Origin: a virus
Lineage: Duplodnaviria > Heunggongvirae > Uroviricota > Caudoviricetes
IMG/VR virus record: IMGVR_UViG_2695420859_000012
DNA: 64,000 bases
Direction: 5' to 3' (one strand)
Shown: positions 4,051 to 56,116 of the stretch, in pieces
How positions within the stretch are numbered: the stretch's first letter is position 1
How the letters are laid out: each line of letters opens with the position of its first letter
The notes under the pieces: generated by a model
What the model saw: only the letters and a program-made list of their open reading frames with translations
Database searches by the model: none
What the model was told of the DNA's origin: nothing
Position numbers and translations under genes: made by a program

Positions 4051-4124
4051 TGATGGAAAACTCCTTTTTCCGTTAATTCTACGCATTCATTGCGCTAATA
4101 GTAAGTATATACTTACCGATTAAC

Positions 4125-4508
4125 TTAATTCAATAAATAGCCAGCAAATTCAACAGGAATGCCTGCTTCTATTAATGCTCCATCATTTTTGGGATAAATG
4201 ATTGGCATCGCAATCGGTCGTACCAGTCGAAAATAAACACCACCAGATTCCGTTTCCTCTACTGGAAACATCTCAATGATTTTATTGGCTTTCTCAACCG
4301 TCGTAGTAATTGACGAACCACGCACAATGATTGTGAATGATTCGTGATAAAAGCCCTGTAGCTCATGATCGATGCTGATACCGGTATTTGGGTTAATAAG
4401 CAGGACGCCAGATTTCACATTGGCAGGCAAGTAGTGACAGAAAATGTCAGTCCCGACCGTGCCAATCTTTGCCTTCTGCATCAAACTTGCAAACGCTTCA
4501 ATAAACAC
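4125..4508 (-). CDS. Phage structural protein (tail completion / neck, hypothetical)
   Basis: ORF in the head-tail joining block. Start placed at an internal GTG with a GAGG RBS just after the stop of the upstream gene; the track ORF extends to 4631 and overlaps the neighbour. Confidence 0.45.
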   Translation of the reverse strand: MFIEAFASLMQKAKIGTVGTDIFCHYLPANVKSGVLLINPNTGISIDHELQGFYHESFTIIVRGSSITTTVEKANKIIEMFPVEETESGGVYFRLVRPIAMPIIYPKNDGALIEAGIPVEFAGYLLN

Positions 4509-4509
4509 A

Positions 4510-4983
4510 TTAACCTCTCGTAAATCCGGCTTTTCTGGCAGCCTCAAGAATCGCTTCTGAGAACTGCTTCTCGCTAATTTCCACCGCTCTTTCCAGAAAG
4601 TGTGGCCCAACACGGGGTTTAACACCGGCAATTGGTGGGTTTGTCACGTTCTTCATTCGAGAAAGATAACCGAGTCGGTATTTACCCAGCTCCATGTACT
4701 TAGCATAGTCACCTACTTCTACGCCCGGATGCCCCTGACGTGGTTTTGCTCCAGACACAGAAAGCTCAATACGCAGCCCTGAATAACCTTCTTTAATCAC
4801 CCTGGCAAAGATGGCTGTCTCCAGAGATCCGGTTTCCAGCGGGGCCATTGCACGGCTGAGGCGCTCAACCAAACGCGCCAGCTTTTCCATGTCCCGAATA
4901 AGATATCGCTTAAATGCTTTCTGGCTGTTGTTGAGTCTATTCCCCGCACGTTTGAACTGATGCGCATCGTATTTCAGACCCAT
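4510..4983 (-). CDS. Phage head-tail joining protein (hypothetical)
   Basis: 157-aa ORF in the conserved position between head and tail genes; no specific motif recognised. Confidence 0.45.
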   Translation of the reverse strand: MGLKYDAHQFKRAGNRLNNSQKAFKRYLIRDMEKLARLVERLSRAMAPLETGSLETAIFARVIKEGYSGLRIELSVSGAKPRQGHPGVEVGDYAKYMELGKYRLGYLSRMKNVTNPPIAGVKPRVGPHFLERAVEISEKQFSEAILEAARKAGFTRG

Positions 4984-5318
4984 ATATTCGCCCCTACTTC
5001 AAGATGCCCAGGTCTTCCTCGTAGCCCCCAGCGGCGATGAACACTGGACACCTTTAATTTTTGACCTTCAAGGATCAGTACATCATCAAGTTGTACAGCC
5101 GCTTCTAAAGGGACAACTAACACAGCATCAAACAGCTCCAGACTCGCCTTACCACGACTACCAGAGCTATCAGCACGAACTGACGATTTCTCATTACTCT
5201 GTTCGAACTTAACCACGCCGACATTCGTCTTCCTGACGAATTGTAATTGCGCCTCACCGTAAACGTTCTTTGCGCCAAAGCGGTAGATCGCAATTTCTGT
5301 TTGCCATGAAATATTCAT
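4974..5318 (-). CDS. Phage head-tail adaptor / head closure protein (hypothetical)
   Basis: ORF in the structural operon. Start placed at the internal Met (MNISWQ) preceded by GGGAG; the track start is 5414. Confidence 0.4.
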   Translation of the reverse strand: MNISWQTEIAIYRFGAKNVYGEAQLQFVRKTNVGVVKFEQSNEKSSVRADSSGSRGKASLELFDAVLVVPLEAAVQLDDVLILEGQKLKVSSVHRRWGLRGRPGHLEVGANIWV

Positions 5319-5397
5319 GCTCTCTCCCTGTTGTTGTCGGTCGCTCTCATTACTGGCCAAAAAACCTTTCGACCAAAAGTAAATAATGCGACTGGCG

Positions 5398-6231
5398 TTA
5401 CGCACGGCGAACAATCATACGGTTGTTGATGTAACTGACCAGCAAGCGCCAGGTACTACGAGCCACATGCACGTTTGCAGCTTTACCGGTACGGTACATG
5501 TTGGTTGTTTCACCGATGGACTCTGACAAAATGCCATCCTCTCGTGCTGCGGCTACATCATTGCCATTTGCGATCTCACACGCTTCGTTGACAACGGCAA
5601 GCATCAACGCTTCTTTGAAGTAGTCAGGGAACTCTTCAAACTTCTCCTGCGTCATCTTTTCCCAATCGACTAAATCATGCCGGTACGCTCCATCTGCTTC
5701 CCACGGAATGTCATACACATTCAGCATATTTTGAGGGCGATCGTATCGGTCAAAGTCGATACGTAGAATTTTGCGGATTGAGAACGGTAAAGTTTTAATT
5801 CGTCTGGTAGCCTCAATGAGACGCTTGCGCATTAAGCCTTCACCATCCGACAGCAAAGTGTCCCCATTCAGCATATCGATCGCCTGCATTTGAGCATCAG
5901 CGACAGTTGCAAACGACTGTTCTGGTATCGACAGTTCAAAACTATTCAGCAGAACATACATTTGCCGCTCTTCATGCGTCAGACCCGATGCAACAGCCTT
6001 CACAATGACGTACCGCAGATCTCGCTCTTTCTCAGAGAGCTGGTTATATTCAGCCGACACGACAACCGGAATCGACATTTGACCGCTGGTAATTTCTAGC
6101 GGCTCGCCATCAACGAGAATAGCCCCGGTGCTGTCCTTTACTGTGTAGGTGGCAGATTCGATATCCAGCACGTTGAAGGCAAATGAAAGAGAAACAGCTT
6201 CACCGCTACGATACGAGTCGATCTGCGCCAT
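5398..6231 (-). CDS. Phage structural protein (hypothetical, 277 aa)
   Basis: Long ORF within the co-directional structural operon, translationally coupled to the downstream gene. Confidence 0.5.
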   Translation of the reverse strand: MAQIDSYRSGEAVSLSFAFNVLDIESATYTVKDSTGAILVDGEPLEITSGQMSIPVVVSAEYNQLSEKERDLRYVIVKAVASGLTHEERQMYVLLNSFELSIPEQSFATVADAQMQAIDMLNGDTLLSDGEGLMRKRLIEATRRIKTLPFSIRKILRIDFDRYDRPQNMLNVYDIPWEADGAYRHDLVDWEKMTQEKFEEFPDYFKEALMLAVVNEACEIANGNDVAAAREDGILSESIGETTNMYRTGKAANVHVARSTWRLLVSYINNRMIVRRA

Positions 6232-7642: not shown

Positions 7643-7672
7643 CAAAAAGGGTGGGCGTATAGCCCACCCTTT
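7643..7672 (-). terminator. Rho-independent terminator downstream of major capsid gene
   Basis: Reverse-strand hairpin AAAGGGTGGGC-TATA-GCCCACCCTTT followed by TTTTTG, between the capsid stop (7704) and the next start (7630). Confidence 0.6.
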
Positions 7673-7703
7673 AACATAGATAACTACTTATCTACTACAC
7701 TGA

Positions 7704-8604: not shown

Positions 8605-9492
8605 TTACTTAAGTCCAATTTTCCCCAGACCGGAGGCCAACTTATCCATAGTCGACTTGTTCTTCGGTTGGGATATTGTGTAGGTCGATTTGGAATGTGA
8701 GCCTACACCCTGCTTGGCTTCGCTACGCATCAATGCGTCAGCTTCCGGATCTGCCCGCACAATGCGTTCAATCGCGGATTCAAACGGCAACGGCTTACCT
8801 TCACCGTCAACCAGAACAGCTCGTTCTTTATGACCTGCCGGTTTGTCATAACCCACTACGCTACCGTCTTCACCCACTTCAAAATGAGAACCGTAGATCA
8901 CGCGGGCTTTTGCCGGAGTCATCAGAACTTTGTCACGTAGGAAGAGAGAGTTACTGAAGGAAGCGCCCACGGTCATCTCGACTAATTGAGATTTCAGTGA
9001 TGCGTTTTCACTTTCCAGTGCTGCATAACGTTCGTCACGCTGTGCCAGCTCTGCCTGGTGTGCTTCGATCATCTGTTTTTTAACAGCATCGAACTCACCA
9101 CGACGCTCCAGTTCAGCTTGCTCCGCCTCACGACGTGCGTTTTCTGCGGCCTGTTCAGCTTCTAAAAGCTGGCGAGCACGCGCCGGGTCGATTTCACCGT
9201 ACTGAGCAAGCTGATCGGCCAATGTGCGCTCTTTCTCTTTGCGCTTCATGTTCTCTTTCAGCAGTTCAGCACCAGCTTTCTTGGTTTTGCGAAGTTCGGC
9301 CAGTAACTCTTCATGAGTCATGCCAGCGTATTCGTCATCACCCTTCGGCTGCTCTTTTTGTTCACCCTGCTTGTCAGGATCTTGTGTACTCTGCTCATTA
9401 TCAGCAGCTACACCGCCAGCGCCCCCACGCTCATGCGCTTCAGCAACATCCATCAGACCACGACGGGCCAAAAGCATTTGCCACAGTTTCAT
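8605..9492 (-). CDS. Scaffolding protein (putative)
   Basis: Charged, Ala/Glu/Gln-rich protein with predicted coiled-coil character (AEQAAENARREAEQAELERRGEFDAVKKQMIEAHQAELAQRDERYAALESENASLKSQL), located between portal and capsid genes. Confidence 0.55.
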   Translation of the reverse strand: MKLWQMLLARRGLMDVAEAHERGGAGGVAADNEQSTQDPDKQGEQKEQPKGDDEYAGMTHEELLAELRKTKKAGAELLKENMKRKEKERTLADQLAQYGEIDPARARQLLEAEQAAENARREAEQAELERRGEFDAVKKQMIEAHQAELAQRDERYAALESENASLKSQLVEMTVGASFSNSLFLRDKVLMTPAKARVIYGSHFEVGEDGSVVGYDKPAGHKERAVLVDGEGKPLPFESAIERIVRADPEADALMRSEAKQGVGSHSKSTYTISQPKNKSTMDKLASGLGKIGLK

Positions 9493-9513: not shown

Positions 9514-11088
9514 TCACTCGTTCTCTTGAGTAGATGAGTCCCCATTCCCTCGGGGTTGATCTTGCCCGCTTTCTTGGGCTGCACCACGATCATAAGTAAG
9601 TACTGACTTATTTTCAAGGGTATTTAGATCATTTTTTGGCGGAAAATTCAAGAGATCTTTATCAAATTCCTTTTTCATCGCCTCAGTAATGTTCGGGAAA
9701 ATCTTCTCAATAAGCATTTCCATCTGGTGACGACGTACAGAGTCCGGTGCCTGAAGTAATGACAGTTTCTCGGCAACAGAAAATTCATCTGTAAGGCCAC
9801 GAATATCGAAACTTTCTGGATACGCAATTAAAGAGTGGTCTTCGTCCAGATCTACCCCCATCCATTTCGCAACCAGTAGCATGATTTGGCGTTCAGCCCT
9901 TTCCAGACGCTCTGCTTTTGTGACAAGCAAGCTATTTACACGCTGGAAGTCATACATTTTTGCGGCACCAGATGAGTTATCAATTCCCTGTGCGTTGTCC
10001 TGCTTCGTTCGCTCACCAGCGACACCAACTGAATGGTAGATTTCGTTAATCACCGTCTTAATCGTAGTGATGATCATCTGAGCTTGTTTCGGGTCTGGTG
10101 ACAAATAAAACGGCTGGTTTCCACCTTCAGAATCGTAGGTGAAGACTCGCTTTGTGCCCATTTCAAGCACTTTAGTGTGGTTTTCATCACCAGGTAAAAG
10201 CGACTGTACCGGTATAGCCAACTGGCTAAATGTCTGATCCTGAATAATGGCATCAAGGTTTGACAGATAGTTTGCAACCGCACGATCAAGATAAGCGATA
10301 TCATCGATCAACGATGGGCTGAAATACGGTGATTCACTTTCTCCAATACAATCAACAGGAAACACAGGAACTACGCTGAGATTATGCTCACCGCTATCCT
10401 CTAAAATAACTTTTGCCTGACGGCGACCTGCTCCACCAGCGCCCTTCTTCACTTCCTCACGGAACAGATACCACTCGTTTTGTGTCCACAGACGATAACG
10501 TTGGTATTCCTGACCTGTAGAAGTAAAAGGATCTGCATCATCACGAGCGACTTCCACAATTAACGCCCACAACATATTCCCGTCGTCGTCCCATGCCACA
10601 TCCAGCATTTGCTGAGGTGAAATCCAGTAGGCGTAGGCGCGAGCATCTTTCTTTTTCTCGTCAGCTACTGACTCAACATCACCACTCATCGTGCTATCGA
10701 CAACAACCCATATGCGACCGTAAATAGACGACTGCAAATCAATAGCGGCCATAAATGAGTCAATAGAGGCATTCTGGCGAGTCGCACGTTTCCAGAAATT
10801 GCGGATCTGCTCTGGTGCCTCTTCGATATTTCTATGAATGTCTTCTTTAAAGAGATATTTGTTGATGAGGTTTACCACCTCACGAGTGTGGTTGAAGCGA
10901 TAAGCACGCTCAACTCGCTCCTTAAACTCCTGATCTCCCTCTTTAAAGTAACGAAAGATATTGTCTGTAAACCAACCACGCCCGCCAGCGTAAGTGCTGG
11001 CGAGGAAGTCCCAATGTTCTTTTTTCTTTTCGTATTCCGGGTGGCGTCGCGCCACCAGATCCTTAATTTGTTTGTCGTTCAATTCCAT
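9514..11088 (-). CDS. Portal protein (putative)
   Basis: 524-aa ORF immediately downstream of the large terminase gene in the same operon; size and position fit a portal. Confidence 0.6.
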   Translation of the reverse strand: MELNDKQIKDLVARRHPEYEKKKEHWDFLASTYAGGRGWFTDNIFRYFKEGDQEFKERVERAYRFNHTREVVNLINKYLFKEDIHRNIEEAPEQIRNFWKRATRQNASIDSFMAAIDLQSSIYGRIWVVVDSTMSGDVESVADEKKKDARAYAYWISPQQMLDVAWDDDGNMLWALIVEVARDDADPFTSTGQEYQRYRLWTQNEWYLFREEVKKGAGGAGRRQAKVILEDSGEHNLSVVPVFPVDCIGESESPYFSPSLIDDIAYLDRAVANYLSNLDAIIQDQTFSQLAIPVQSLLPGDENHTKVLEMGTKRVFTYDSEGGNQPFYLSPDPKQAQMIITTIKTVINEIYHSVGVAGERTKQDNAQGIDNSSGAAKMYDFQRVNSLLVTKAERLERAERQIMLLVAKWMGVDLDEDHSLIAYPESFDIRGLTDEFSVAEKLSLLQAPDSVRRHQMEMLIEKIFPNITEAMKKEFDKDLLNFPPKNDLNTLENKSVLTYDRGAAQESGQDQPRGNGDSSTQENE

Positions 11089-11114
11089 TTGAATAACCTT
11101 AGATAATTACCTAC

Positions 11115-12371
11115 CTATCGAGAACCACCAAGAATAACACGGTTTTTGACTGGATACCTACGATGTACTGGATAGCCCAATGCGTCTGCACTATGCTCAA
11201 TGCCACCTGTCTTATCCATATCTCGTGTTCCAGGCTTGTAGATGACTTTTTCCAGTGAATCAATCAAATGCTTGCACTTCGGATCGATATACAACCGGAT
11301 ATCTCCAGATGCGGTCATCAGCATTCGGTTAACAGCATTAACACGATCCGCAATTGGCGGGTGCTTTTTCGAATAATCGACACGTAAGAATCCCTTCTCT
11401 TTGAATATGTCGACGTCAGACTCCCCGCGAGCATGTTGGCGATAAGCACCTGCCGGATCTGGAAATACCGTTATCTGTGATTTCCAGCGCCAGAAGCGTC
11501 TCTCAAGCTCATCACAAACCTCTGCCGTGTTAGAGGAAAAGAGCACCAATTCATCAATTGCCCATAGCTCACCATTTGGCTGAGGTTGCAAAATTACTGA
11601 AGACATCGGGTCAATGTTGAAGTCCTGCCCTACCCATATAGGCAACCGAGGGTTGAACTGAAGCGGTTTTACATGCACGTTACGATCGAACGGGTAGTAA
11701 ACGCGCCCGGACATGTTCTCAAAGCTCGCCAGGTACTCCTGAGCGAACGATTTCGGGTCCATATCGTTCTTAGCAGCTTCAATTTCCGCCGTAGGCACAA
11801 ACGGAGAATCGGCAGTTACAAACTGCCAGCTCTTCCACTGTCCCTTTCTTTGCAGCTCTACGTTCTGGCCTATAGTCCACAGTTTGTGAAATTCCGAGAA
11901 ACCTTTTGGCGTACCAATGATAAGTGCACCGCCGCGTGTCGATGAAAGAGTAGGTCGTAACACCTTGTACCAGGTGTCAGCCTTCATATCCTGAAATTCA
12001 TCAAGCACTACAAAATGCAACGCTACGCCGCGCAGAGTGTCAGGCTTATCAGCACCTTTGAGGGCGATCTCCGAACCGTTCTTCAACACGATTGTCATCG
12101 TGGTGTCGTTCTTTTTCCTAACCCACTTACGAGGCAGAACTTCCTGTAGATCGTCCCACAAAATCTGGCGAGCCATCTGGTAAGTAGGAGCGACATACCA
12201 GACCCTTTGCTTTTTTTCCTTTGCCGCCGCACGAATAATAGTGGAGATCGACAACCGGGATTTTCCCCAGCGTCGACCAGCACAAACAACTTTAAATCGA
12301 TGCGGAGACTGGAAGACTTTCATCTGTCCAGAATGCAGTTGCACAAGACTGAGCGAGGACGGGATTGCCAT
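11115..12371 (-). CDS. Terminase large subunit
   Basis: N-terminal Walker A (VVCAGRRWGKS) and Walker B (HFVVLDEF), followed by a nuclease-size C-terminal domain. Start overlaps the stop of the upstream small terminase gene. Confidence 0.75.
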   Translation of the reverse strand: MAIPSSLSLVQLHSGQMKVFQSPHRFKVVCAGRRWGKSRLSISTIIRAAAKEKKQRVWYVAPTYQMARQILWDDLQEVLPRKWVRKKNDTTMTIVLKNGSEIALKGADKPDTLRGVALHFVVLDEFQDMKADTWYKVLRPTLSSTRGGALIIGTPKGFSEFHKLWTIGQNVELQRKGQWKSWQFVTADSPFVPTAEIEAAKNDMDPKSFAQEYLASFENMSGRVYYPFDRNVHVKPLQFNPRLPIWVGQDFNIDPMSSVILQPQPNGELWAIDELVLFSSNTAEVCDELERRFWRWKSQITVFPDPAGAYRQHARGESDVDIFKEKGFLRVDYSKKHPPIADRVNAVNRMLMTASGDIRLYIDPKCKHLIDSLEKVIYKPGTRDMDKTGGIEHSADALGYPVHRRYPVKNRVILGGSR

Positions 12372-13003: not shown

Positions 13004-13117
13004 AGATCCCTCTAAAACACACAGAGCGCGTCCATGCGCTCTAAAACAACTTGTTTACTGCATTTTCTAACCAACTTGTTTTCTGGGTTGTTTAATTAGG
13101 TCTGGGCATGTCTTATT

Positions 13118-13177
13118 AAGCCTGCTTCCGTATATATTTAATAAGTTACTTATTATTTATATATACAGAAGCAGGTC
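13118..13177. repeat. Long AT-centred palindromic element (copy 1 of 2), upstream of the small terminase gene
   Basis: CCTGCTTCCGTATATAT...ATATATACAGAAGCAGG inverted repeat; a near-identical copy lies at about 37312-37371. Confidence 0.6.
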
Positions 13178-14366: not shown

Positions 14367-15028
14367 GAATGGACCTCATCGTGACTACCATTGCGATATT
14401 CCACCTTCACGCGTTCTTTGTAGTGCTTGGTGATCTGCATATCCGGGCGCAGCGCGTTCTTCAGGTCTTCGTGAGTCGTCGCCACCATTACCGTCGCACC
14501 AACCTTTCGAGCGGCACGCTGGAGGTTAGACGCCACAACCTGAGCGGTTACACGGTCGAGAACAGCGCCGAACTCGTCAGCAGCCCACACTTTAGCGCCT
14601 GACTCAATCAGTTTGGCAATCTTGAGACGATATTTCTGGCCGTCTGACATTTCAGAAGGCTTGCGAACAAACAGATATGCATCGTTCAGACCAGCCATAG
14701 ATAACAACCCAAGCGCATCACTGGTCGTTTTGCCCAACTGATCGATGACGTTAACCTCATTATCGAAGGTAAAATCATCGATGGAGGCTACAGACAGCCC
14801 TTCATCCTTCATCTGTCGTTGCAACTCGCGCAGCACAACGGATTTGCCGGAACCGGATTGGCCGGTGATGTACACCACATCGCCCTGCTTCACTTCCAGC
14901 TCCAGATTGTCGTAAAGCGTCCACTCTTTTTCGTCCAGGCCAAGCCCGAACGACTCAGCGATTTCCAACGTGCGCGTGGTTTTATTTACGCGTGTCTGAA
15001 ACGATACGTTGATGATGTATTTGCTCAT
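14363..15028 (-). CDS. ABC-type ATPase (stand-alone nucleotide-binding domain)
   Basis: Walker A (GQSGSGKS), ABC signature-like MSDGQKYRL, Walker B (VWAADEF). Confidence 0.6.
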   Translation of the reverse strand: MSKYIINVSFQTRVNKTTRTLEIAESFGLGLDEKEWTLYDNLELEVKQGDVVYITGQSGSGKSVVLRELQRQMKDEGLSVASIDDFTFDNEVNVIDQLGKTTSDALGLLSMAGLNDAYLFVRKPSEMSDGQKYRLKIAKLIESGAKVWAADEFGAVLDRVTAQVVASNLQRAARKVGATVMVATTHEDLKNALRPDMQITKHYKERVKVEYRNGSHDEVHS

Positions 15029-15693: not shown

Positions 15694-16391
15694 TACATAC
15701 GCTCCTTGTAGTAGTCGACCAGCCACACCAGAGCCTCACCAGCGTTCTCCATTTCATTACCGGTGTTAATAGCCTGCTCTTTGATGATGTTTTTTATGGT
15801 TTCTGCAACACGATCTGACGCATCGAAAGTTACTTTGAAGCGCATGGTCTGATGTTCCGCACCCACACGTTCGGTTTTCTCTCGTTTGTCGGTATCGACA
15901 GGCTCATCACTACCACGAGACAACGCCTCCAGTGCTTCAAGGTCGATTGCCGCCTCTTTTGCTAAAACCATCGAGATTTCGTCGTCATACGGGGCGATTT
16001 CAGACAGTTGATAGTCAAGTTCTGACTGAATTTCTTCAATGAAGCGTTGCAATGCGATTTGGTCGTCTTCACCGTATCGCTCGTTGTCCACCAGTGACAT
16101 CTGTTTAGCTACGACATCGCTAATTTTGCCCACAGAAAGCACCGGAACCGTTGAAATTCCTTGCTCAATAGCAGCACGCCAGCGATGTTCGCCGCCGAGG
16201 ATTTCAAAAAATCCATCTTCAAGTTCACGAGCCAAAATTGGCTTAAAAAAGCCCAATTTTTCGATAGAACCTTTCAGTTTTTCAAAATTCTGCGCACCAA
16301 CCGAATTGGTGTTCCAGGTATTCGGGCGAAGGTTGGCAACATCAACCTGCAAAATCGTGATTTTTACATCCATTTTATTGCTACAATCCAC
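15693..16391 (-). CDS. ParB-like nuclease domain protein
   Basis: ParB N-terminal domain motif (ILGGEHRWRAA); first gene of the operon, divergent from the helicase gene. Confidence 0.6.
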   Translation of the reverse strand: MDCSNKMDVKITILQVDVANLRPNTWNTNSVGAQNFEKLKGSIEKLGFFKPILARELEDGFFEILGGEHRWRAAIEQGISTVPVLSVGKISDVVAKQMSLVDNERYGEDDQIALQRFIEEIQSELDYQLSEIAPYDDEISMVLAKEAAIDLEALEALSRGSDEPVDTDKREKTERVGAEHQTMRFKVTFDASDRVAETIKNIIKEQAINTGNEMENAGEALVWLVDYYKERM

Positions 16392-16455
16392 TAAGTAATC
16401 ACTTACTTATTATAATAGCCAAATAACATACAAAAGGCACTAAGGAAAGAGGTTT

Positions 16456-23008: not shown

Positions 23009-23009
23009 A

Positions 23010-23405: not shown

Positions 23406-23530
23406 TTCACTCTCCGTAGTGTATTGGTTATTTTTATATTCTATAATCGTAAGTATTTACTTACAATACAAAAAGCCCCGTAAGGATGGCGGGGCTGTCG
23501 TACTGTCGACTAATTGCCACTTGCACATTA

Positions 23531-30308: not shown

Positions 30309-30317
30309 TAAAAAGGT

Positions 30318-31691: not shown

Positions 31692-31752
31692 GTGTTTTTC
31701 TCTTATCGTTTAGTAACTACATTCTTACATAAATTAAGTAAGCATTTACCTA

Positions 31753-33438
31753 TCATTTAACGCGTTTGAAAACGTATACGCTGACTGTGATCCCTGTGTC
31801 TTCAAACTCGTTGGTAAACGACTTCCCTCTGGCATAAACGTAATTATCCATCGTCATCCAGTCCAGTATTGGCGCAGTGCCCGGCAATACTGCTACAAGA
31901 CGCCCGCCGACTTTCAGATGCCCCAGCGCAGCCAGCGTGTGCTCTCTATGACGACCAAGCGAGTACGGCGGGTTCATAACGATTTTGTCGAACTGATAAC
32001 CTGCGTTGTCCTCAGACCACTTTATGAAGTCGCAGCAAATCGTGTTCGTATACCCTTTTCCACGCAGGATATCAGCGAAGAGAGGTGCGATTTCTATGCA
32101 GGTAACATCTTCCAGATCGGCGTCAATATAGGCCAGAAGATCCCCACGTCCGGCTTGAGGCTCCAACAGCTTCTCACCAGGCTTCAATTCAGTGGCTCTT
32201 GCAACGTACTCAGCAATCAAGCGTGGGGTAGGGTAGAACTGGTGTGATTTTGTATCCGGTATTAAACCGGTAGCCACAATCGTATTTAGCGTATGGCCGA
32301 TGTCATACGGGAACTGCCAGTGCTTTTTCTCCTGCACGCCGCCAATGAAGCTCAGTGTGCGCTCAAGCTCTTCCACCTGCGACTTCTGGAGAGCTGAATC
32401 AGAGAAGTACCATACACCTTTGTCTTTGCTCAATCGCCCGTCACGAAGCGCAGTGCGAACCGGCACGGAGATCGTCTTCTGGATTAAACCGAACTGCTTT
32501 GGTGCCCGTGTTTTTGGCGCAGTTCGGCATGGCGCGGGGATTGCAGCAGGCATACTGTAAGCCAGCACCTCATTCAACTTCCAGGCCACGTCAGGATGTA
32601 TTTCAAAGTGAACGTTGCCGTTCTTGAACATCTTCACGCGCATCAGATTTCCATCGACGTTCATCCAGTCACCGGTCTGGCAGTCGTTTGCCCGATACGC
32701 AGCTGATAGCACCTCAGCAGTGCGGTTGATGGTAATAAATTCTTTGTGCGCGAAGAAATGAAGCAAGACACGCAGATCGTCGATGTAGTCCTCTTTGCGA
32801 TAGTTCACGCTAACGCTGTCCCGCCAGAAATCAGAAATGCAGTCAGCGATTATCAGCCGCTCGCTGAAACCATTTGTCTTATTTGTCTTGTGCACAGGAC
32901 TCAGCGCCTTAAACAAGCCATACACGCGCTCAGAGAGATATTTGTGCCTGTCATTCAGCAAATTAAGCATCGTGGGTATGACCGTTTCTGCTTTGAACTC
33001 CGGTACACCAACGAACTCTTTAACCTTCATCTGGTAGCCGGTTCTGTCAGTTTTGATGACTTCCTGTTTGCCCTCTATAAACTGCTCGCGCCACTCATCT
33101 CGACGGGAAGCTGGCATGATCAGCAAAACGTTAGTCATGTCCGTGACCTTCCTCCAGTACTCGGCCCAAATATTCTGTTTCACCCATTCCAGATCGACTT
33201 TATCCAACCAACCTCGATTTAAACGCGAGCGATCTTCATCTGGTCGATGGTTTAGTTTCAGCAGGCGATTAATCATGTTGTGGCGTTCGTCGCCATAAAC
33301 GAAGTTGTGAACCTGATACATGAAGGCGATCTCTTTCTCGCACTCGGCCACAATTTCGTGGATAACGTTCATTTCCTGACGATAATCGATAGCAGTGTTT
33401 GAGCTGGCATCGTCGATGATGGAAAGGGCTGTATTCAT
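31753..33438 (-). CDS. DNA N6-adenine methyltransferase with large N-terminal domain of unknown function
   Basis: C-terminal about 190 aa carry motif I-like LEPQAGRGDL and motif IV (IVMNPPYS); the N-terminal about 370 aa are unassigned. Conserved upstream element directly 5'. Confidence 0.6.
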   Translation of the reverse strand: MNTALSIIDDASSNTAIDYRQEMNVIHEIVAECEKEIAFMYQVHNFVYGDERHNMINRLLKLNHRPDEDRSRLNRGWLDKVDLEWVKQNIWAEYWRKVTDMTNVLLIMPASRRDEWREQFIEGKQEVIKTDRTGYQMKVKEFVGVPEFKAETVIPTMLNLLNDRHKYLSERVYGLFKALSPVHKTNKTNGFSERLIIADCISDFWRDSVSVNYRKEDYIDDLRVLLHFFAHKEFITINRTAEVLSAAYRANDCQTGDWMNVDGNLMRVKMFKNGNVHFEIHPDVAWKLNEVLAYSMPAAIPAPCRTAPKTRAPKQFGLIQKTISVPVRTALRDGRLSKDKGVWYFSDSALQKSQVEELERTLSFIGGVQEKKHWQFPYDIGHTLNTIVATGLIPDTKSHQFYPTPRLIAEYVARATELKPGEKLLEPQAGRGDLLAYIDADLEDVTCIEIAPLFADILRGKGYTNTICCDFIKWSEDNAGYQFDKIVMNPPYSLGRHREHTLAALGHLKVGGRLVAVLPGTAPILDWMTMDNYVYARGKSFTNEFEDTGITVSVYVFKRVK

Positions 33439-35655: not shown

Positions 35656-35803
35656 GTGGACTCCATCCAGTGTCAGAAAGAGTTGCGGCTGGCGATTGCC
35701 AGCCGCCTTTCTCGTTCCATCCTGGAACTGTGTCTTACCGACACATTGTCATCCTGACGCCGATAAGATACATGATTTAAAATGATAGGTAAACACTTAC
35801 TTA

Positions 35804-36394
35804 CTATTTATTATAAACAAAACCAATATCTTTCTTGTGAGGCATATCTGCTGCTGAAAAAGCTGCGATCTTCGCGAGTCGATCACATATTTCATTTTCA
35901 CGATGCCCGGCGTGACCTTTAACCCACTTCCAGCGAACATTATGTCGACTTGCGGCCTCATCCAGACGCTTCCACAGATCAACATTCTTTACCGGTTTTT
36001 TGTCAGAAGTCATCCATCCATTGCGTTTCCACCATTTCATCCACTGTGTCATGCCGTTTTTCAGATACTGGCTATCAGAGTGCAAAATAACGTTGCATGG
36101 ATATTTCAAACGCTCCAGCCCGATAAGTGCCCCCATCATCTCCATGCGGTTATTGGTGGTGCTATGAAAACCATCTGAGAACTCGCGTTCCTCACCACGA
36201 TACTGGAGAACGATACCGTAACCGCCCGGGCCACCCGGATTTTTAAGGCAAGAGCCATCACTAAAGATTTTCACGGTTTTAAGCTGGGGATTGAACTCTA
36301 CGACAGGCGTTGTGGGATTGGTGCGGGGGGAATTTTTGTTTTTGGCTTTTTTGCGAGTTTTTGCTTGCGATCGGGCTGGTGTCTTCGTCGTCAT
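35804..36394 (-). CDS. rnhA: Ribonuclease HI with basic N-terminal extension
   Basis: RNase H domain near-collinear with E. coli RnhA ([27 protein letters not shown]...[16 protein letters not shown]...HSDSQY...[18 protein letters not shown]). Start placed at the internal Met ([10 protein letters not shown]); the track ORF starts at 36478. Confidence 0.85.
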
Positions 36395-36479: not shown

Positions 36480-36960
36480 TTACTTCCCAGAACAGGTTTT
36501 TATAAACCTGAACTGAACGAACGAAGTGAGTGAAATTCACCTCGAACGAAGTGAGAGGTTGTCTTTTCAGGTAATACTCTCCCAGGGAGGTGAGTATAAA
36601 AATCTCTCACCAACCTGGTCGTTTCATAACCTGAAAAGTTATGGTCTAAGTCTACTGCCAGCTTAGACTTGGGAAGTTATGGATGACAGCACCCCAGAAC
36701 CGAGATCTTCCCACACTTTATGAAGGGGAGTACTGGATTCAACCTCTCGAAACACCCCAGACTCGACAATCATAAAGTGACCCTTGTCTCTGCTCACTTT
36801 GGTTCCCCCTTCCCCGACACCTAAACGGCACCAGTTCTACGCTGGTAGTGAGCTTTTTTAAACCTGACGCCAGTGACGCTTACCCCCACCCATCAGGTCG
36901 AGTCTCCAGTCTACGACTGGAAACTATCAGATCTTAGCACTTACAATTCACTTTATGAAT
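36480..36960. other. ORF-free region (about 480 bp) with multiple hairpins and short direct repeats
   Basis: No ORF of 60 aa or more on either strand; GAACGAAGTGAG repeated twice; hairpins such as CAGGTTTTTATAAACCTG and CATAACCTGAAAAGTTATGG. Confidence 0.4.
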
Positions 36961-36976
36961 AGTTTGTACTTATCTA

Positions 36977-37231
36977 TCATTGTGATTGATTATTTTCTCT
37001 ACCATGTAGTTGAACATTCAAGGCAAACACCTCATTGATCAACTCACCTAAAAGCTGTTCAACAAGTTCGCGATGCTCGCCAAGATGCAAGCACTTAATT
37101 GCCCATTCGTACAAGTTGAAAGCCTGCTCACGATCTTTCATCATTTCACGAGCCTGGGCCAGAAAATCGCTCTCTACGAGCGCAACGACATTAGTCGGGT
37201 ATGACATGTTGGTTTCCTTAAAGTGGTTCAT
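36977..37231 (-). CDS. Hypothetical protein (84 aa)
   Basis: ORF downstream of the second long palindromic element. Confidence 0.45.
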   Translation of the reverse strand: MNHFKETNMSYPTNVVALVESDFLAQAREMMKDREQAFNLYEWAIKCLHLGEHRELVEQLLGELINEVFALNVQLHGRENNQSQ

Positions 37232-37371: not shown

Positions 37372-37392
37372 AATTACAGACGCCAGAACAAA

Positions 37393-37986: not shown

Positions 37987-38169
37987 CTTCTTTCTCGATA
38001 GGTAAGTAAATACCTATTTTTGCATTTGATTTTATGTCTGGCAATCAAATAAAACGCGCCAGAAATGCAAACGAGAAGCTCTCTGGCGCGTTTTTGTGGT
38101 GCTGGGTATGTGATTGGCTTACCCAGTACTATAAAGCTCTCTATGGGCTTTATTTTAAGTAGGGGAACG

Positions 38170-39695: not shown

Positions 39696-39704
39696 CAGAA
39701 CTCC

Positions 39705-40124: not shown

Positions 40125-40185
40125 TTTTTATCCTTAACCCATTTTGAGAGTTTTATTGTCGCAATGTCGAAGAGGCGAACAATTT

Positions 40186-41716: not shown

Positions 41717-41717
41717 A

Positions 41718-42848
41718 TCACACCGCCACTGGAACCTTGATCCACGGTAGAGGGGCATAGCCAAGAATAAGAATCTCGTCCCATTTGAAATCATCCAGCT
41801 CAGACCATTCATTAGGGAATATAACGACCGGATCTGAATGCTCTGGAGCCTGTCGTTGCATTAGCTCACACACACCTTCCATGTGGTTGTTGTACAAATG
41901 CACGTCAAAGCCAAAATGCACAAATGCACCGGCCATGTGACCCGTAATCTTCGCGAGAAAATGAGTGAGAATGCCATAGCCAGCAATATTGAATGGCATA
42001 CCAACAAAAGTGTCTACGCTACGCTGTACGAGGCAGGAGTTGAGGATGCGTTTGGGGATTCCAAGTTCATCCAGTTCAGTTTCAGTAACACTGCCGTCCA
42101 TCTCCAGATCGTATAGCATCTTGGTGTAGATAGACTCATAACCGAGGCGACTGTGTTGAAGACCAATGTCAGTTGCCATCGTTAAACGGGTTTCAAAATC
42201 CAGTTCACGACTCCACAAAGAGAAGACAAAGTGGCAAGGTGGCAGTTTCATATCCTCAAGCTCGCCTACGTTCCATGCGTTAAGCATGATGCGACGATCG
42301 GTAGGGTTCGTGCGCAGTGTATCGACAATACGCTGTAGCTGATCGATTTCACGGGACAGCACTACGCGATCTTCACTGATACCCAGGTATCCCTCGACTT
42401 TGTACCCGCGTTCACGGAAAGTAGCGATCTTGCTCAGATATTCACTATGGCTCACGATGCGGGTATCTTCCCATCGACGCCACTGCTTACCGTAAACCGG
42501 CCCCAAATCGCCATTCTCATCGGCCCATGCATCCCAAATCTTAACGCCGTTATCCTTGAGAAATTGGATGTTGCCCGTGCCTTTCAGATACCACTCAAGT
42601 TCGACAAGCAGTGGCTTAAGATTTACCGCCTTTCCAGAAATAAGCGGCACAGTCCCACCAGTAAGCATGTAGTAAGAGGGAACGTAGCAGGTGCTTAAAG
42701 TACCAGTGCCTGTGCGATCATCAGCCTGCACGCCGCTTTTAAGCACCGTCTCAATAACTTTTGCATACGATGCGTTTGTTACCTGACCGTTCGTATGCTC
42801 ACGATTCAAAAGGAGTGACACAAAAACCTCACAAAGATAAGTAACCAC
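41718..42848 (-). CDS. thyA: Thymidylate synthase (ThyA family) with two insertions
   Basis: Conserved blocks DDRTGTGT, KIWDAWADENGDLGPVYGKQWRRW, DRRIMLNAWNVGEL, catalytic PCH (KLPPCHF) and FNIAGY. About 100 aa longer than E. coli ThyA. The true start may be an internal GTG near 42821. Confidence 0.8.
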   Translation of the reverse strand: MVTYLCEVFVSLLLNREHTNGQVTNASYAKVIETVLKSGVQADDRTGTGTLSTCYVPSYYMLTGGTVPLISGKAVNLKPLLVELEWYLKGTGNIQFLKDNGVKIWDAWADENGDLGPVYGKQWRRWEDTRIVSHSEYLSKIATFRERGYKVEGYLGISEDRVVLSREIDQLQRIVDTLRTNPTDRRIMLNAWNVGELEDMKLPPCHFVFSLWSRELDFETRLTMATDIGLQHSRLGYESIYTKMLYDLEMDGSVTETELDELGIPKRILNSCLVQRSVDTFVGMPFNIAGYGILTHFLAKITGHMAGAFVHFGFDVHLYNNHMEGVCELMQRQAPEHSDPVVIFPNEWSELDDFKWDEILILGYAPLPWIKVPVAV

Positions 42849-42992
42849 TTATTCATTAAGTGAGTTTACATTTATTGAGGGAACAAGGCCAGATAGATAA
42901 AAAAATGGTGGCCATAGGCCACCAAAAACGAATAGTTGTTTCAGAAATTTAACGCGCCAGCGCAATATACACAGATAGATAACTACCTACAA

Positions 42993-43862
42993 TTATTTTT
43001 TGATCATTCCGTACATTGCTGAGGCTTTAGCTTGCTCAACAAAGGAGGATAAATCGACATCACTATAGGTTGGAGACTTCAGAATCTTTCCATCGGAAAT
43101 TCGAAAACCGATCATCTTATCGGTGCCATCAGCATGGCGAAATCCCAGGTCAGAAGAGTCGTATTTGCAGTTGGCCACAGCATGGCGACGCTCTTCGGCA
43201 TCTGCAGGCCATAATTTTGTCATGTTGGACCGATGAATTTCGCCAACCAGCTCGACGACATTGATACCGAGAAAATCAGCCAGTCGATAAGTCATCATGC
43301 ACGCCACATAGATTTTGTTCATTACACGGCGCAGTTCCTGAATCAGCTCAGAATCCTTAACAGTCTTCTTCTCAAGTTTATCTGCCAGCTCTTCGAGCAT
43401 ACATGACGCCTCACGAGCTTCCTGAAATGGCATTGCCATATCATCGAAAACAGTGTTACCAGGCACAAAAATTGTCTGCATAAAGCGATCAATGCTCTGT
43501 TCCTGCGTGTAATAAGTCATGCCGGTAGAAATACCACCTTTGATGGCGACCATCGTACCAACACCAACGTATAAAAAGTCGGCCATTGCATCCAGCAGTT
43601 GCTCAATATCCCCATTCATTGCGGCTGGAATACCTTCCACTACAGCTTCTTCATGAATCAGGCTTGCACGGAGACGAAGCAGCTCTGGTGTCGGCATAAC
43701 GCGTCTCGGATGCTGGAAGAGTTCATGAAACTGATCGACCATCTTGTAAATACTTTCAGTGGCTACACCATGGCCTTCATGCAATTCATATGGTTCTGGC
43801 TTAAATCCAATGAGTCGATCGGTGGCAAGTTTCAGGTGGTCAGTCAGTTTGGTAAAGTTCAT
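42993..43862 (-). CDS. Hypothetical protein (289 aa); possibly an all-alpha NTP pyrophosphohydrolase-like enzyme
   Basis: Only a weak helical, charged-motif resemblance; position within the nucleotide-metabolism block. Confidence 0.3.
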   Translation of the reverse strand: MNFTKLTDHLKLATDRLIGFKPEPYELHEGHGVATESIYKMVDQFHELFQHPRRVMPTPELLRLRASLIHEEAVVEGIPAAMNGDIEQLLDAMADFLYVGVGTMVAIKGGISTGMTYYTQEQSIDRFMQTIFVPGNTVFDDMAMPFQEAREASCMLEELADKLEKKTVKDSELIQELRRVMNKIYVACMMTYRLADFLGINVVELVGEIHRSNMTKLWPADAEERRHAVANCKYDSSDLGFRHADGTDKMIGFRISDGKILKSPTYSDVDLSSFVEQAKASAMYGMIKK

Positions 43863-43939
43863 GCTAGTTTTGTTCCTTCTTAATTCTTGTGATCCATTGT
43901 GGCCCAGCGTTGCCAGGCCACATAATGCTTTGTATCGGT

Positions 43940-47503: not shown

Positions 47504-47576
47504 GTATCACCAAATAAAGAGGGCCACTATATTTAGTGGCCCATGTTAATAGATAAGCACTTACCTATCAATGAGA

Positions 47577-52120: not shown

Positions 52121-52374
52121 GTGTTTTTCCTTTGTGGTTATTTTGATACAAATTTTAAGAGCAATGAGAAGGTAAACAACTATGCATAACGGTATGTTAG
52201 GAATGAAACGAGCGTCTTAATATACAAAACTTATAAGTAAGTATATACCTATTTATTGTGGCGCAACTTTGCTTGTCTGTATGACTAAAAATAAGACAGG
52301 ATCACTGTAGAACGCTATGAGAGCTATTTTGAGGAGGCGTAGATTCTATCTACGCCAATATACGATCTGGAGGG

Positions 52375-54435: not shown

Positions 54436-54970
54436 TATGCTGTCAGCGGTGAAATGTATGCTATCAGCGGCTATTTTTCTGAAAAGTATGCTGTGAACGG
54501 TTAAAGATATGCTACCAGCGGTATAGTGAGATGAACGTATGCTGTGAGCGGTAAATCATCTATCACCACTCAATGCTCTGCCATACCTCCCCAGTGGTTA
54601 CTAACCTCGAAGAGTGCATTCCATATAGGTTTGCGCTCACTAACATTCTATTGCTATTGCGCTGATTGCTTGTAGTGAAAGGCATTTATTGCCTGCTACT
54701 CCCTGATAGAATGTATGCTGTCAGCGGTGTTTTATTGAGGAATTTTTGTTTGGATATGCTATCAGCGGTAATTAATGGTATATGTCAGACCTTCGTATGC
54801 TGCCAGCGGTAATTTTGTTCTGGTTATACCCATACCGGGACACATTATTCATGCAATGTCTTAAGTATGCTGTCAGCGGTAAAAAATCGAGTAAAGTATG
54901 CTGTGAGCGGTGAGATAGACTCTCGATATGCTATCAGCGGTAGTTGATTGTGTATGCTGTCAGCGGTGAC
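54436..54970. repeat. Iteron arrays downstream of repA (about 12 copies in two clusters)
   Basis: TATGCTGTCAGCGGT, TATGCTATCAGCGG, TATGCTGTGAACGG, TATGCTACCAGCGG, TATGCTGTGAGCGG and similar at about 54436-54552 and 54712-54967. Confidence 0.8.
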
Positions 54971-55014
54971 GACTATGAAATATGACTGCGGAACGTGCCG
55001 CAGTCAGTTTGCAT

Positions 55015-55227
55015 TTAGTGTATTTTCTTTAACAGACCCCAAAGTGTTCCGGCTTTTGTAGTCAGTTTTCCTGTTTCTGGATCGTACATACGCCATTCAC
55101 GCCGCTGGTGGACGATATACCCATCTTCACGTTCCAGACGCTCAAGAATGCCAGGCTGCTTGAAACCCTTAGCACGCCAGTAGCCGCTTGTTTTCTCGAT
55201 TTCCAGACCTGCCAGTGTTAATGCCAT
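55015..55227 (-). CDS. Hypothetical protein (70 aa)
   Basis: ORF whose start overlaps the stop of the upstream gene. Confidence 0.4.
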   Translation of the reverse strand: MALTLAGLEIEKTSGYWRAKGFKQPGILERLEREDGYIVHQRREWRMYDPETGKLTTKAGTLWGLLKKIH

Positions 55228-55562
55228 TACCCAACCTCCTTGCAGTCATCGAAAAGGTAGCTGTCGTTCTTCGCGTGAACGCCGTATACATCACCCGATT
55301 TGTTGTAAACGAACCTATCTTTACCTACGCCAGATAGTTCGCCGTTACGTTTAGTGAGAAACGGGGAAGACAGGACGCGATCATCGCGTACCACATAAAA
55401 CTGTTCGCCACGGTCCACAACCATCGCGCCGTAATTAGCTTTAACGGCGTTGCGGATCAGGCCGTTTTTCGCTTCGACCACAAACATTTCGCACTCATAG
55501 ACATGTGTGTCCGCAAAGACGGGGAGAGTGAGCAGCGCCAGTACCAGGGCTGTTTTCTTCAT
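55227..55562 (-). CDS. Secreted protein (hypothetical, 111 aa)
   Basis: Predicted signal peptide (MKKTALVLALLTLPVFA). Confidence 0.5.
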   Translation of the reverse strand: MKKTALVLALLTLPVFADTHVYECEMFVVEAKNGLIRNAVKANYGAMVVDRGEQFYVVRDDRVLSSPFLTKRNGELSGVGKDRFVYNKSGDVYGVHAKNDSYLFDDCKEVG

Positions 55563-55736
55563 GCCACGACTCCTTTGAAAACGCCTAATGCTGAGTCGAA
55601 GACCAGTACTACGGCCAGCGCATTGATCATCACATCATTAACAGGCGCCAGCGCTTTACGGATTGCCCCTGTGAAGATGCAGTCGAGCACAAAGGCTATC
55701 GAGATAATAAGTAACGTGATATCTAATAAAATTTTC
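55563..55736 (-). CDS. Small membrane protein (58 aa; below ORF-track threshold)
   Basis: My own translation from a GTG start: VKILLDITLLIISIAFVLDCIFTGAIRKALAPVNDVMINALAVVLVFDSALGVFKGVVA; its stop overlaps the ATG of the downstream secreted-protein gene. Confidence 0.3.
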
Positions 55737-55777
55737 ACGATAGGTAAATGCTAACTTATATATTTTTGCTGTAAATA

Positions 55778-56116
55778 TCACTCAAAAGTGCTGATACCCA
55801 AAATGCGCTCAAGATGGGCCGCGTCTTCATCGCTTACCAGCATTGTGTCGTCTACGTACCAGCAGCTACCGTTGTGCCAACAAACACCGTCATCATCGAT
55901 ATAAATAGAATCCGCATCCATTCCTGTGTATTCAACTAGATTGCGTTCAATTGCCGCTTGAATTTCTTCATCGTTCAGCCCGTCGCACTTGATCATGAAC
56001 AACGGGTAAACGTCATAGTCGGTACTAGATGAAATGCGAACCAAAGTCTTCATGTGTTTTCTCCTTGTTGGTAAGTACTTATCTATCTTAATGGGCGCTA
56101 TAAGGCGCACAATCAT
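55778..56116 (-). CDS. Hypothetical protein (112 aa or shorter)
   Basis: ORF with a possible internal start (MKTLVRISS). Confidence 0.4.
   Translation of the reverse strand: MIVRLIAPIKIDKYLPTRRKHMKTLVRISSSTDYDVYPLFMIKCDGLNDEEIQAAIERNLVEYTGMDADSIYIDDDGVCWHNGSCWYVDDTMLVSDEDAAHLERILGISTFE

Follow-up and report, generated by a model that had tools for sequence, protein, structure and literature searches.

A 20-bp palindrome with consensus ATARGTAAGTACTTACYTAT recurs about 16 times in a 64,000-nucleotide (nt) stretch of viral DNA (IMG/VR record IMGVR_UViG_2695420859_000012, Caudoviricetes; this whole stretch is hereafter called the window), and we favour, at somewhat better than an even chance, the reading that these palindromes constitute the genome-wide operator network of a lysogeny repressor, working like the C1 operators of phage P1. 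The palindromes are strongly enriched, are conserved at orthologous positions in related elements, lack the signals expected of an RNA structure, and overlap promoter-like elements at a variable register. Each operator would be a double-stranded DNA site for a dimeric repressor encoded by the element itself, most probably a predicted helix-turn-helix (HTH) protein of ~128 amino acids (aa) whose gene adjoins the integrase.

The region 36000-44000 of the window displays 100% identity to the E. coli plasmid pSJC33-2 (NZ_CP080257.1), 98% to the phage-plasmid Cyrano and 76% to Salmonella phage SSU5, and it matches 690 plasmids in PLSDB. To judge from these identities, the window is part of an SSU5/Cyrano-type E. 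coli phage-plasmid, in line with the first-pass annotation of this DNA, made from its letters alone, which had already taken it for a phage-plasmid. Using the RefSeq table of the near-identical plasmid pSJC33-2 as gene annotation, the window was found to contain head, tail, accessory, nucleotide-metabolism, recombination and plasmid-replication genes, as well as a type I restriction system present as an insertion; the minus strand carries nearly all genes, and non-coding DNA amounts to 20% of the window.

Enrichment and location of the palindromes

The half-site comprises 10 bp (aTArGTAAGt), and the two half-sites are placed about one helical turn apart. The first-pass annotation had reported at least a dozen imperfect palindromes with GTAAGTA and TACTTAC half-sites; all 13 of its positions match real copies, although two of them (31722 and 35775) are 10-12 nt off, and three further sites (9592-9611, 36958-36977 and 42837-42856) were absent from its list. 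The comparison with shuffled sequence that it had proposed was clear-cut, with 9 matches to the 20-mer ATARGTAAGTACTTACYTAT at no more than 3 mismatches vs 0.00 in 100 dinucleotide shuffles. Likewise, GTAAGTA occurs 16 times in the window vs 4.07 expected, and the 11-mer half-site with at most 2 mismatches 32 times vs 10.1 expected. A symmetric weight matrix gave 22 overlapping matches at a threshold of at least 14 bits vs 0.07 expected, an enrichment considered only as supportive because the matrix was built from the sites themselves.

At a threshold of at least 13 bits, the matrix yielded 17 non-overlapping matches in the window, with 16 true sites, and all but one of these 17 matches are found in annotated non-coding DNA. 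The true sites are located in short gaps upstream of minus-strand genes in 15 of the 16 cases, the exception being 9592, inside the portal gene; every site lies 1-563 nt from the start of a downstream minus-strand gene, and in five cases the palindrome touches or overlaps the preceding gene's stop codon. Immediately after two copies come GC-rich terminator hairpins (7644-7672 and 47521-47542), which agrees with the earlier description of copies lying between genes or before terminators. At sites 4097 and 23445 the half-sites are 4 bp further apart (GTAAGTA-NN-TACTTAC). Two matrix matches (37335-37354 and 13134-13160) were rejected as members, being inside a different, 55-bp hairpin repeat, and a LexA SOS box (CTGT-N8-ACAG) was ruled out, as ATARGTAAGTACTTACYTAT has no CTGT/ACAG arms.

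Conservation in related phage-plasmids

The first-pass annotation had also suggested comparing the positions in relatives, with the reservation that the palindromes might be no more frequent than AT-rich intergenic DNA would give, or might not be conserved there; neither holds, for besides their enrichment the palindromes are kept at orthologous places in SSU5 and in the Klebsiella element pJN2-26, genomes that are ~76% identical. In three-way alignments of the E. coli, SSU5 and Klebsiella elements, the palindromes appear as conserved islands in spacers that have otherwise diverged, with 79% invariant columns within the palindromes vs 28-38% in the 40 nt on either side. Whole-genome scans gave 29 matrix matches in pSJC33-2 and 27 in SSU5 (at least 13 bits), and 26 in 100 kb of pJN2-26 (at least 12 bits), two of the latter being perfect consensus sequences; a few of the weakest matches in these counts are false positives.

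The exact consensus was found at 39 loci among 2.9 million viral contigs of IMG/VR, mostly in contigs of tens of kb up to 112 kb, and several of these contigs carry two exact matches 3,446 bp apart, which is the spacing observed in pJN2-26. Among representative bacterial genomes (596 Gb), there were 13 single, chance-like exact matches in unrelated taxa, none of them in Enterobacterales. Furthermore, a sister motif, ATTAGTAAGCGCTTACTAAT, is likewise dispersed over Acinetobacter baumannii phage-plasmids that share this architecture, with 21 matrix windows of at least 14 bits (~20 distinct sites) vs 0-2 in shuffles. In the distant virulent relative nickie, a Pseudomonas phage that keeps the same gene order, ParB-like genes included, no recurrent palindrome was observed in 25 intergenic regions of the 50 kb examined, using word counts per intergenic segment, a method that recovered a positive control.

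Overlap with predicted promoters

Promoters were scored over the full -35, spacer and -10 in three genomes (the E. coli element, SSU5 and pJN2-26), and were kept if present at the same offset in all. About 11 of the 16 window sites overlap or abut a predicted promoter that is conserved, and a conserved promoter with a minimum score of at least 7 was found on the sense strand of 9 of 18 site families vs 1 of 18 on the antisense strand (Wilcoxon p = 0.001). The claim that some copies overlap -10-like hexamers was borne out, as several coincide with promoter hexamers. The register is variable: the conserved -10 starts at palindrome position -3 at dam and 56067, 7 at 55740, 12 at 4097, 18 at the portal-internal and ssb sites, 21 at nrdA and after the tape measure gene, 26 at 42975 and 23445, 35 after rnhA, and 42 at 36958. 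A promoter class of fixed geometry was rejected, since registers vary across the three genomes. Activator sites need a fixed geometry, and overlap with the polymerase footprint at varying register is the pattern of operators; moreover, several promoters combine good -35 boxes with palindrome-filled 17-bp spacers, which leaves no role for an activator.

These observations bear on the possibility that the palindromes are instead sites of a phage-encoded activator defining middle or late promoters devoid of a -35 element, according to the logic of P1 Lpa or T4 MotA, which we regard as unlikely. Such a reading would fit the lack of a TTGACA-like box at a fixed distance from most sites, and the offset counts display no -35 peak relative to the palindromes. 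The last three bases of the palindrome plus its flank form TATnnT in 32 of 61 sites, and AAAAAT ends at position 2 in 35 of 61; in addition, the lysis-operon site lies exactly 17 bp from a conserved extended -10 (TGATATAAA), with the palindrome centred at about -42.5, a class II position. The core AAGTACTT also resembles the P1 late-promoter box AAGTTACTT: P1 has 11 Lpa-type late promoters, and in both systems an inverted repeat stands beside the -10 at many dispersed promoters, LPhot having AAGTTACTT where AAGTACTT is found here (PMC10695390). However, the P1 box spans 9 bp and is annotated as the '-22 region', whereas the palindrome spans 20 bp, its register varies by 45 bp, and several of its promoters have good -35 boxes.

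Arguing against an activator are the spread of the register, from -3 to +42 relative to conserved promoter elements, and the complete sigma-70 promoters that hold the palindrome in their 17-bp spacer or over +1 (nrdA, portal-internal, dam and the repressor's own). The counts of -10-like hexamers show mirror-image peaks at two palindrome positions, -3 and 18. These hexamers arise from a flanking A, 3 nt upstream of the palindrome, and a flanking T, 3 nt downstream of it, which are themselves mirror-symmetric and may simply extend the binding site. Furthermore, the late genes of P1 are under separate control via Lpa, whereas here one motif precedes both early-type (nrd, dam, ssb, sbcCD) and late-type (head, tail, lysis) genes, and a tblastn search with Lpa as query gave no homologue in pSJC33-2, SSU5 or the window (best E = 1.2).

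A candidate repressor

Next to the integrase, and outside the window, pSJC33-2, Cyrano and pJN2-26 each carry the gene of a predicted HTH protein of 126-128 aa, which is the homologue of Cyrano CYRAN_45 (WP_001282577.1 in pSJC33-2) and is labelled in RefSeq and PLSDB as an XRE-family or helix-turn-helix regulator. The authors of the Cyrano study described it as a putative master repressor, expressed in the lysogen, and Cyrano is an inducible element (PMC9928086). Members of this family were found in 961 PLSDB plasmids, spanning the whole SSU5 group. When the regions upstream of the repressor gene were aligned among elements of E. coli, Klebsiella, Yersinia pestis (pFra) and Enterobacter, the switch region proved to be conserved mainly in one block, TTTACA-16-TAATAT followed directly by ATC(G/A)GTAAG(C/T)ACTTACCA. 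The latter is a variant palindrome located at -8 to +12 of the predicted repressor promoter in these four enterobacterial lineages, and its placement is the classical layout for a putative negative autoregulation.

Variant sites are also present upstream of the Acinetobacter, K. oxytoca and Kp1498 repressor alleles. The predicted recognition segment of the HTH, N-x-N-x-[LIV]-S-[LIF]-I, is retained by alleles that are no more than 46-57% identical, and the Acinetobacter allele, 38% identical, accompanies the sister motif, sites before the repressor gene included. As another possible reader, a phage sigma factor was discarded: the Acinetobacter element encodes one (NZ_CP061522.1, 82337-83002, of the sigma-70 family, between MoxR/CobS-like ATPase and DNA polymerase genes), and no homologue was found in the enterobacterial elements.

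The identity of the binder rests on inference, and the operators might be bound by another protein, either encoded by the element (a ParB-N-domain protein similar to KorB, or a 71-aa CYRAN_37-like protein) or of host origin, which we hold to be decidedly improbable. KorB is a ParB-family CTPase, and RK2 offers in it the precedent of a ParB-family global repressor with dispersed palindromic operators; two ParB_N proteins encoded at 15025-16373 adjoin palindrome 16391, and the CYRAN_37-like protein is conserved in all three genomes. Against these candidates, the ParB-like genes and their order are kept in nickie, where no recurrent palindrome was seen, and the palindrome family is the sole conserved palindromic element in the repressor switch region. 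A host factor is further disfavoured by the lack of the exact consensus in Enterobacterales among the representative genomes, and by the altered motif of the Acinetobacter elements.

DNA site or RNA hairpin

An RNA hairpin would be expected to show mismatches biased to G:U on the transcribed strand, and co-varying arms. Among 62 sites of the three genomes, the sense strand has 44 G:U and 40 A:C mismatches, 27% of the nine arm positions are non-Watson-Crick, and the choice of A or G at positions 1, 4, 5 and 9 is independent between half-sites, with no correlation and no compensatory change; the two half-sites have the same composition, and are therefore not asymmetric. The predicted RNA folding of the window sites ranges from 0 to -7.3 kcal/mol with AU-rich stems, and 5 of 15 window sites fold no better than shuffles, three of which (35785, 55740 and 56067) are among the best matrix matches; none of these three folds at all (z = -0.06 for site 35785). 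The lack of a G:U excess, the independence of the halves and the strong sites that do not fold therefore indicate a site acting at the DNA level, rather than in RNA. As read from these patterns, the conserved feature is the sequence of two independent half-sites, the presumptive signature of a dimeric DNA-binding protein.

Accordingly, an RNA hairpin, a processing site and a translational operator were each rejected on the strand-asymmetry, covariation and folding tests, and it is very improbable that the palindromes act as leader hairpins for processing or stability, as weak terminators, or as operators for a protein that binds RNA, for example the FljA-like product of the gene at 18792-19316. 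It is true that many copies are followed, after 1-16 nt, by a start codon or a Shine-Dalgarno sequence, that some fold better than shuffles (z down to -4.8), and that the window encodes a homologue of FljA (PF03614), a protein that binds the fliC mRNA leader. What is conserved, however, is sequence and not pairing: G:U and A:C mismatches are nearly equal in number, the mispaired positions are not compensated, and the stems are weak at best. Hence, where the first-pass annotation had left the motif as either regulatory or structural, the regulatory part is favoured, as a DNA-level operator on promoters, and the structural or RNA-processing part is not.

Finally, the chance that the palindromes are functionless AT-rich repeats or remnants of mobile repeats is negligible, since, even if intergenic DNA is AT-rich and the matrix was derived from its own sites, the 9 matches vs 0 in 100 shuffles, the orthologous conservation in ~76%-identical genomes despite diverged flanks, the Acinetobacter sister motif and the 39 IMG/VR loci with their repeated 3,446-bp spacing all stand against it.

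Proposed mechanism and its weak points

In the repressor reading, each operator would overlap or abut the core of a host sigma-70-type promoter of a lytic operon, and the operons under control would be those for head, tail, lysis, nucleotide metabolism, recombination and replication. In the plasmid state, repressor bound to ~25-29 sites per genome would occlude RNA polymerase, and ~90 kb of lytic genes would therefore be silent while the interspersed plasmid and accessory genes are expressed. The few sites devoid of a promoter (7676 and 11099) might act as elongation roadblocks, or might belong to unrecognised promoters. The weaker variant operator over the repressor's own start site would provide negative autoregulation, limiting the repressor level.

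Several points weigh against this proposal. The promoters are weight-matrix predictions; the strong sites 7676, 11099 and 42837 and the site upstream of the DnaB-region gene have no recognisable promoter, and many of the predicted promoters have poor -35 boxes, as activator-dependent promoters also do. The gene for the candidate repressor lies outside the window, its best Pfam matches, HTH_19 (18.9 bits, cut-off 30.2) and HTH_37 (16.4 bits), are both below the cut-offs, and no solved homologue was found in the PDB. Moreover, no heteroimmune relative with both a swapped repressor and a swapped motif was found; the most divergent alleles (K. pneumoniae 1498 and K. oxytoca, 46-48% identity) share the same HTH signature and the same operator type, and the heteroimmunity test therefore discriminates nothing.

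SSU5, furthermore, has no repressor gene and yet keeps all sites, which we rate as neutral. Enterobacter plasmids that are 98-99% identical to SSU5 up to ~42,643 carry extra DNA at that point, the match resuming elsewhere, and SSU5 thus appears to be a recent deletion derivative that has lost the integrase-repressor module. Because the deletion is recent, the kept sites are uninformative, and the argument that they could not be operators of a repressor that SSU5 lacks was dropped.

Individual sites

In what follows, sites and promoters are on the minus strand unless stated otherwise, palindromes are given as sense sequences, site scores are weight-matrix scores, and all promoters are sequence predictions.

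A 24-bp variant at 4097..4120 (ATCGGTAAGTATATACTTACTATT; score 18.0) lies between the minor-capsid gene (low end 4125) and the Ig-domain tail gene; its central TATACT (4109-4104) is the -10 of the promoter TTGAAT(4133-4128)-18-TATACT, detected by a plain consensus scan and scoring 11.4 in all three genomes. The palindrome at 7676..7695 (GTAGATAAGTAGTTATCTAT; 22.8) follows the major capsid gene at a distance of 8 nt and is separated by 3 nt from the hairpin at 7644..7672, a GC-rich intrinsic terminator directly downstream of it; it has orthologues in SSU5 and pJN2-26, the pJN2-26 copy being a perfect consensus, and no conserved sigma-70 promoter was found here in the three-genome scoring. At 9592..9611, inside the 3' end of the portal gene, the palindrome (ATAAGTCAGTACTTACTTAT; 25.5) has one mismatch to the consensus and fills the spacer of TTGAAA(9617-9612)-17-TATGAT(9594-9589), the top match of the consensus scan, with a score of 13.1 in the three genomes. 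The palindrome at 11099..11118 (ATAGGTAGGTAATTATCTAA; 20.9) overlaps the stop codon of the large terminase gene, 10 nt before the portal start; it is conserved in SSU5 and pJN2-26, the three-genome scoring gave no conserved promoter, and it is a candidate roadblock-type site.

The palindrome at 16391..16410 (21.6), to which no strand is assigned, occupies the divergent control region between the ParB-like operon on the minus strand and the DEAD-helicase/FljA-like operon on the plus strand; on the minus strand a TATAAT ends at palindrome position 2, on the plus strand TATTAT/TATAAT is found at the palindrome end, and the -35 elements are poor. Just downstream of the terminator at 23470-23494, the variant at 23445..23468 (TTGTAAGTAAATACTTACGATT; 17.1) carries within its left half-site the -35 of TTGTAA-17-TAGAAT (23466-23438), SSU5 and pJN2-26 sharing TTGTAA-17-TA(A/G)(T/A)AT. 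The palindrome at 31734..31753 (ATAGGTAAATGCTTACTTAA; 23.7) abuts the stop of the DUF4942 gene, and a conserved extended -10-like sequence, TGTAAGAAT, is located 4 nt downstream, at 31729-31721, in all three genomes.

At 35785..35804, the palindrome (GTAAGTAAGTGTTTACCTAT; 24.8) abuts the RNase H stop, and its right half-site provides the -35 of the promoter after rnhA, TTTACC(35793-35788)-17-TATCTT(35770-35765), which scores 8.6 in the three genomes. A weaker palindrome at 36958..36977 (ATAGATAAGTACAAACTATT; 15.1) abuts the stop of a small gene and has a stronger SSU5 orthologue (ATCGGTAAGTACTTACCATT; 19.8); the conserved promoter TTCATA(36959-36954)-17-TAAGAT(36936-36931), with scores of 9.9-12.1, is placed just downstream of it. 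The palindrome at 37998..38017 (ATAGGTATTTACTTACCTAT; 25.5) lies 11 nt upstream of the start of the adenine-methyltransferase gene (dam), at about -8 to +12 of the promoter TTGCCA(38044-38039)-17-AAAAAT(38021-38016), which has a TG extension and a diverged spacer and scores 9.4-11.2 in the three genomes.

The palindrome at 42837..42856 (ATGAATAAGTGGTTACTTAT; 17.6), 15 nt upstream of the thymidylate synthase start, has orthologues scoring 23.5 in SSU5 and 25.2 in pJN2-26. A degenerate copy at 42975..42994 (AATTGTAGGTAGTTATCTAT; 14.0) abuts the stop of a MazG-like gene, and its left half-site is the -35 of TTGTAG(42992-42987)-17-TATATT(42969-42964), conserved as TTGTA(G/A) across genomes and scoring 9.9-11.2 in the three of them. 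The best palindrome of the window, at 47549..47568 (ATAGGTAAGTGCTTATCTAT; 27.5), is located between a RuvC-like gene and nrdA and fills the promoter TTGATA(47571-47566)-17-TAACAT(47548-47543), which scores 11.8 in the three genomes. The copy at 52233..52252 (ATAGGTATATACTTACTTAT; 25.2), 112 nt upstream of an SbcD-like gene, is a conserved island within an otherwise unalignable spacer, with -10-like sequences (TGTCATAAT / TGTATATT) 6-7 nt downstream. At 55740..55759, the palindrome (ATAAGTTAGCATTTACCTAT; 22.6) is 1 nt upstream of the GTG of a small gene and has at its centre the -10 of TTTACA(55775-55770)-16-TAGCAT(55753-55748), with scores of 9.2 in the E. coli element and 10.2 in SSU5. Lastly, the palindrome at 56067..56086 (ATAGATAAGTACTTACCAAC; 24.6) is preceded by a hairpin (56093-56110) and followed by AAGGAG-N7-ATG; its promoter, TTGTGC(56112-56107)-16-TAAGAT(56090-56085), is weaker, with a score of 7.0.

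The layout before nrdA suggests a further idea, namely that the operators belong to compact 'insulated promoter' modules, which we consider quite unlikely. Here a stop codon is followed by the operator-filled promoter (TTGATA-17-TAACAT) and then by a GC-rich terminator hairpin with a U-run (47521..47542), located between the palindrome and the nrdA start (47503). The predicted transcription start lies 6-8 nt past TAACAT, within the 5' arm of the terminator; the hairpin forms in read-through RNA and cannot form in RNA begun at the predicted start. Upstream read-through would then terminate, and operator-controlled transcripts without the 5' arm would enter nrdA, whose expression would hinge entirely on this promoter. 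Outside the window, the tape measure gene is likewise followed by a conserved promoter and then a hairpin, although most of that 5' arm would be left in the transcript; beyond the capsid gene, the palindrome precedes the terminator and no conserved promoter was found. If such insulation were general, each lytic operon would be an independent unit gated by the repressor, and palindrome and repressor would have evolved together from Enterobacterales to Acinetobacter, as the immunity system that defines the SSU5 supergroup.

Comparison with known systems

A close functional parallel is the C1 system of P1, also a plasmid prophage, in which one repressor acts on many dispersed operators that overlap sigma-70 lytic promoters and on its own gene (NC_005856 annotation). 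The P1 operators, however, are asymmetric 17-mers of unrelated sequence, whereas those described here are symmetric. A tblastn search for a P1 C1 homologue returned nothing below E = 3, and no homologue of P1 Coi was found.

In mycobacteriophage L5, the gp71 stoperators, attributed to Brown et al. in 1997, reportedly comprise ~25-30 repressor sites in short intergenic gaps genome-wide, between co-transcribed genes too. Sites 7676 and 11099, in short intergenic gaps within operons, have such a stoperator-like location, and since stoperator-type sites also lie between co-transcribed genes, their lack of a promoter might be explained in this way. The L5 sites, nevertheless, are asymmetric 13-mers in one orientation, in contrast to the symmetric 20-mers found here, most of which overlap promoters.

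The KorA/KorB system of RK2/RP4 also has symmetric operators of one sequence spread at or near plasmid promoters, with coordinated silencing by a few dimeric repressors (KorA operator: PMC2665229); its proteins and operators are unrelated to those considered here, where the favoured binder is a small, putative HTH protein. With the CI-Cro system of lambdoid phages and 434 the palindromes share half-sites about one helical turn apart, a putative HTH dimer, promoter overlap and repressor autoregulation, but lambdoid operators form tandem clusters at two immunity-region loci, whereas here one variant site is found at the repressor gene and ~25 sites are dispersed. As far as sequence and protein homology indicate, the palindrome system belongs to none of the P1 C1, L5 stoperator or KorA/KorB families.

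Other motifs and genes in the window

The AACAAnTTGTT element, from which the first-pass annotation had correctly separated the palindromes, occupies different places. With at most one mismatch it has 18 matches vs 4.8 expected, and these cluster upstream of the small-terminase gene (13045-13080) and in the accessory region 22189-34905, where the 20-bp palindrome is rare. In nickie, AACTACTTGTT / ACAAGTTGTTAA is found upstream of its small-terminase gene, and the element may therefore predate the palindrome. The terminase-large/portal gap of nickie (9414-9487), which corresponds to the position of site 11099, has its own inverted repeat of unrelated sequence, GCACTATGGT...ACCATAGTGC. A GC-clamped, AT-rich hairpin of ~55 bp, CCTGCTTCTGTATATATAAATAA...TATATACGGAAGCAGG, is present in two copies (13121-13175 and 37315-37369), and the copy upstream of the small-terminase gene has a 15-bp palindrome, AATAAGTAACTTATT, in its loop; reverse-complemented, the core AAGTAACTT gives the '-22 box' of P1 LPhot, AAGTTACTT. 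The element may be a late promoter or a terminator.

Regarding gene content, the window at ~22200-26600 has a 7-bp offset relative to pSJC33-2, and 24.3-26.6 kb is devoid of RefSeq gene annotation; three transferred gene models (22592-22891, 23009-23404 and 23993-24322) have no clean translation in the window with the 7-bp offset. The type I restriction-modification system at 56934-64000 (R, DUF4268, S and M genes) is an insertion with respect to Cyrano and SSU5, and Cyrano has other genes at that place. A phage-plasmid-borne methionyl-tRNA synthetase gene (metG) and an ApbC/MinD-like ATPase gene are located at 27017-30308, with no palindrome nearby, and the ApbC/MinD-like gene was reported among those expressed in the Cyrano lysogen. 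The FljA homologue at 18792-19316 (plus strand), in the sole long plus-strand operon of the window, is a full-length match to Salmonella FljA, 'repressor of phase-1 flagellin' (PF03614, E = 1.5e-84), has a weak Hfq-like hit at its C-terminus, and shows 79-83% conservation in SSU5 and in Klebsiella elements; it is possibly a host-directed moron with flagellin expression as its target.

Significance

Clinical E. coli, Klebsiella, Enterobacter, Salmonella and Yersinia commonly carry phage-plasmids of the SSU5/pHCM2/pMT1 type (690-960 PLSDB records), and some SSU5-type elements bear resistance genes, such as blaCTX-M-15 (PMC3999498, PMC9600943). In the searchable literature, we found no description of SSU5 promoters or operators, of the palindrome motif, or of lysis-lysogeny control. 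With a defined operator motif, the repressor regulon and ~25 promoters per genome could be mapped in testable form; the motif could also be used to induce or cure these elements, to construct reporters, and as a marker by which immunity groups are typed. If our reading is right, these phage-plasmids would join P1 and the L5-type mycobacteriophages as a third, independent case of prophage repressor control that is genome-wide rather than localised.

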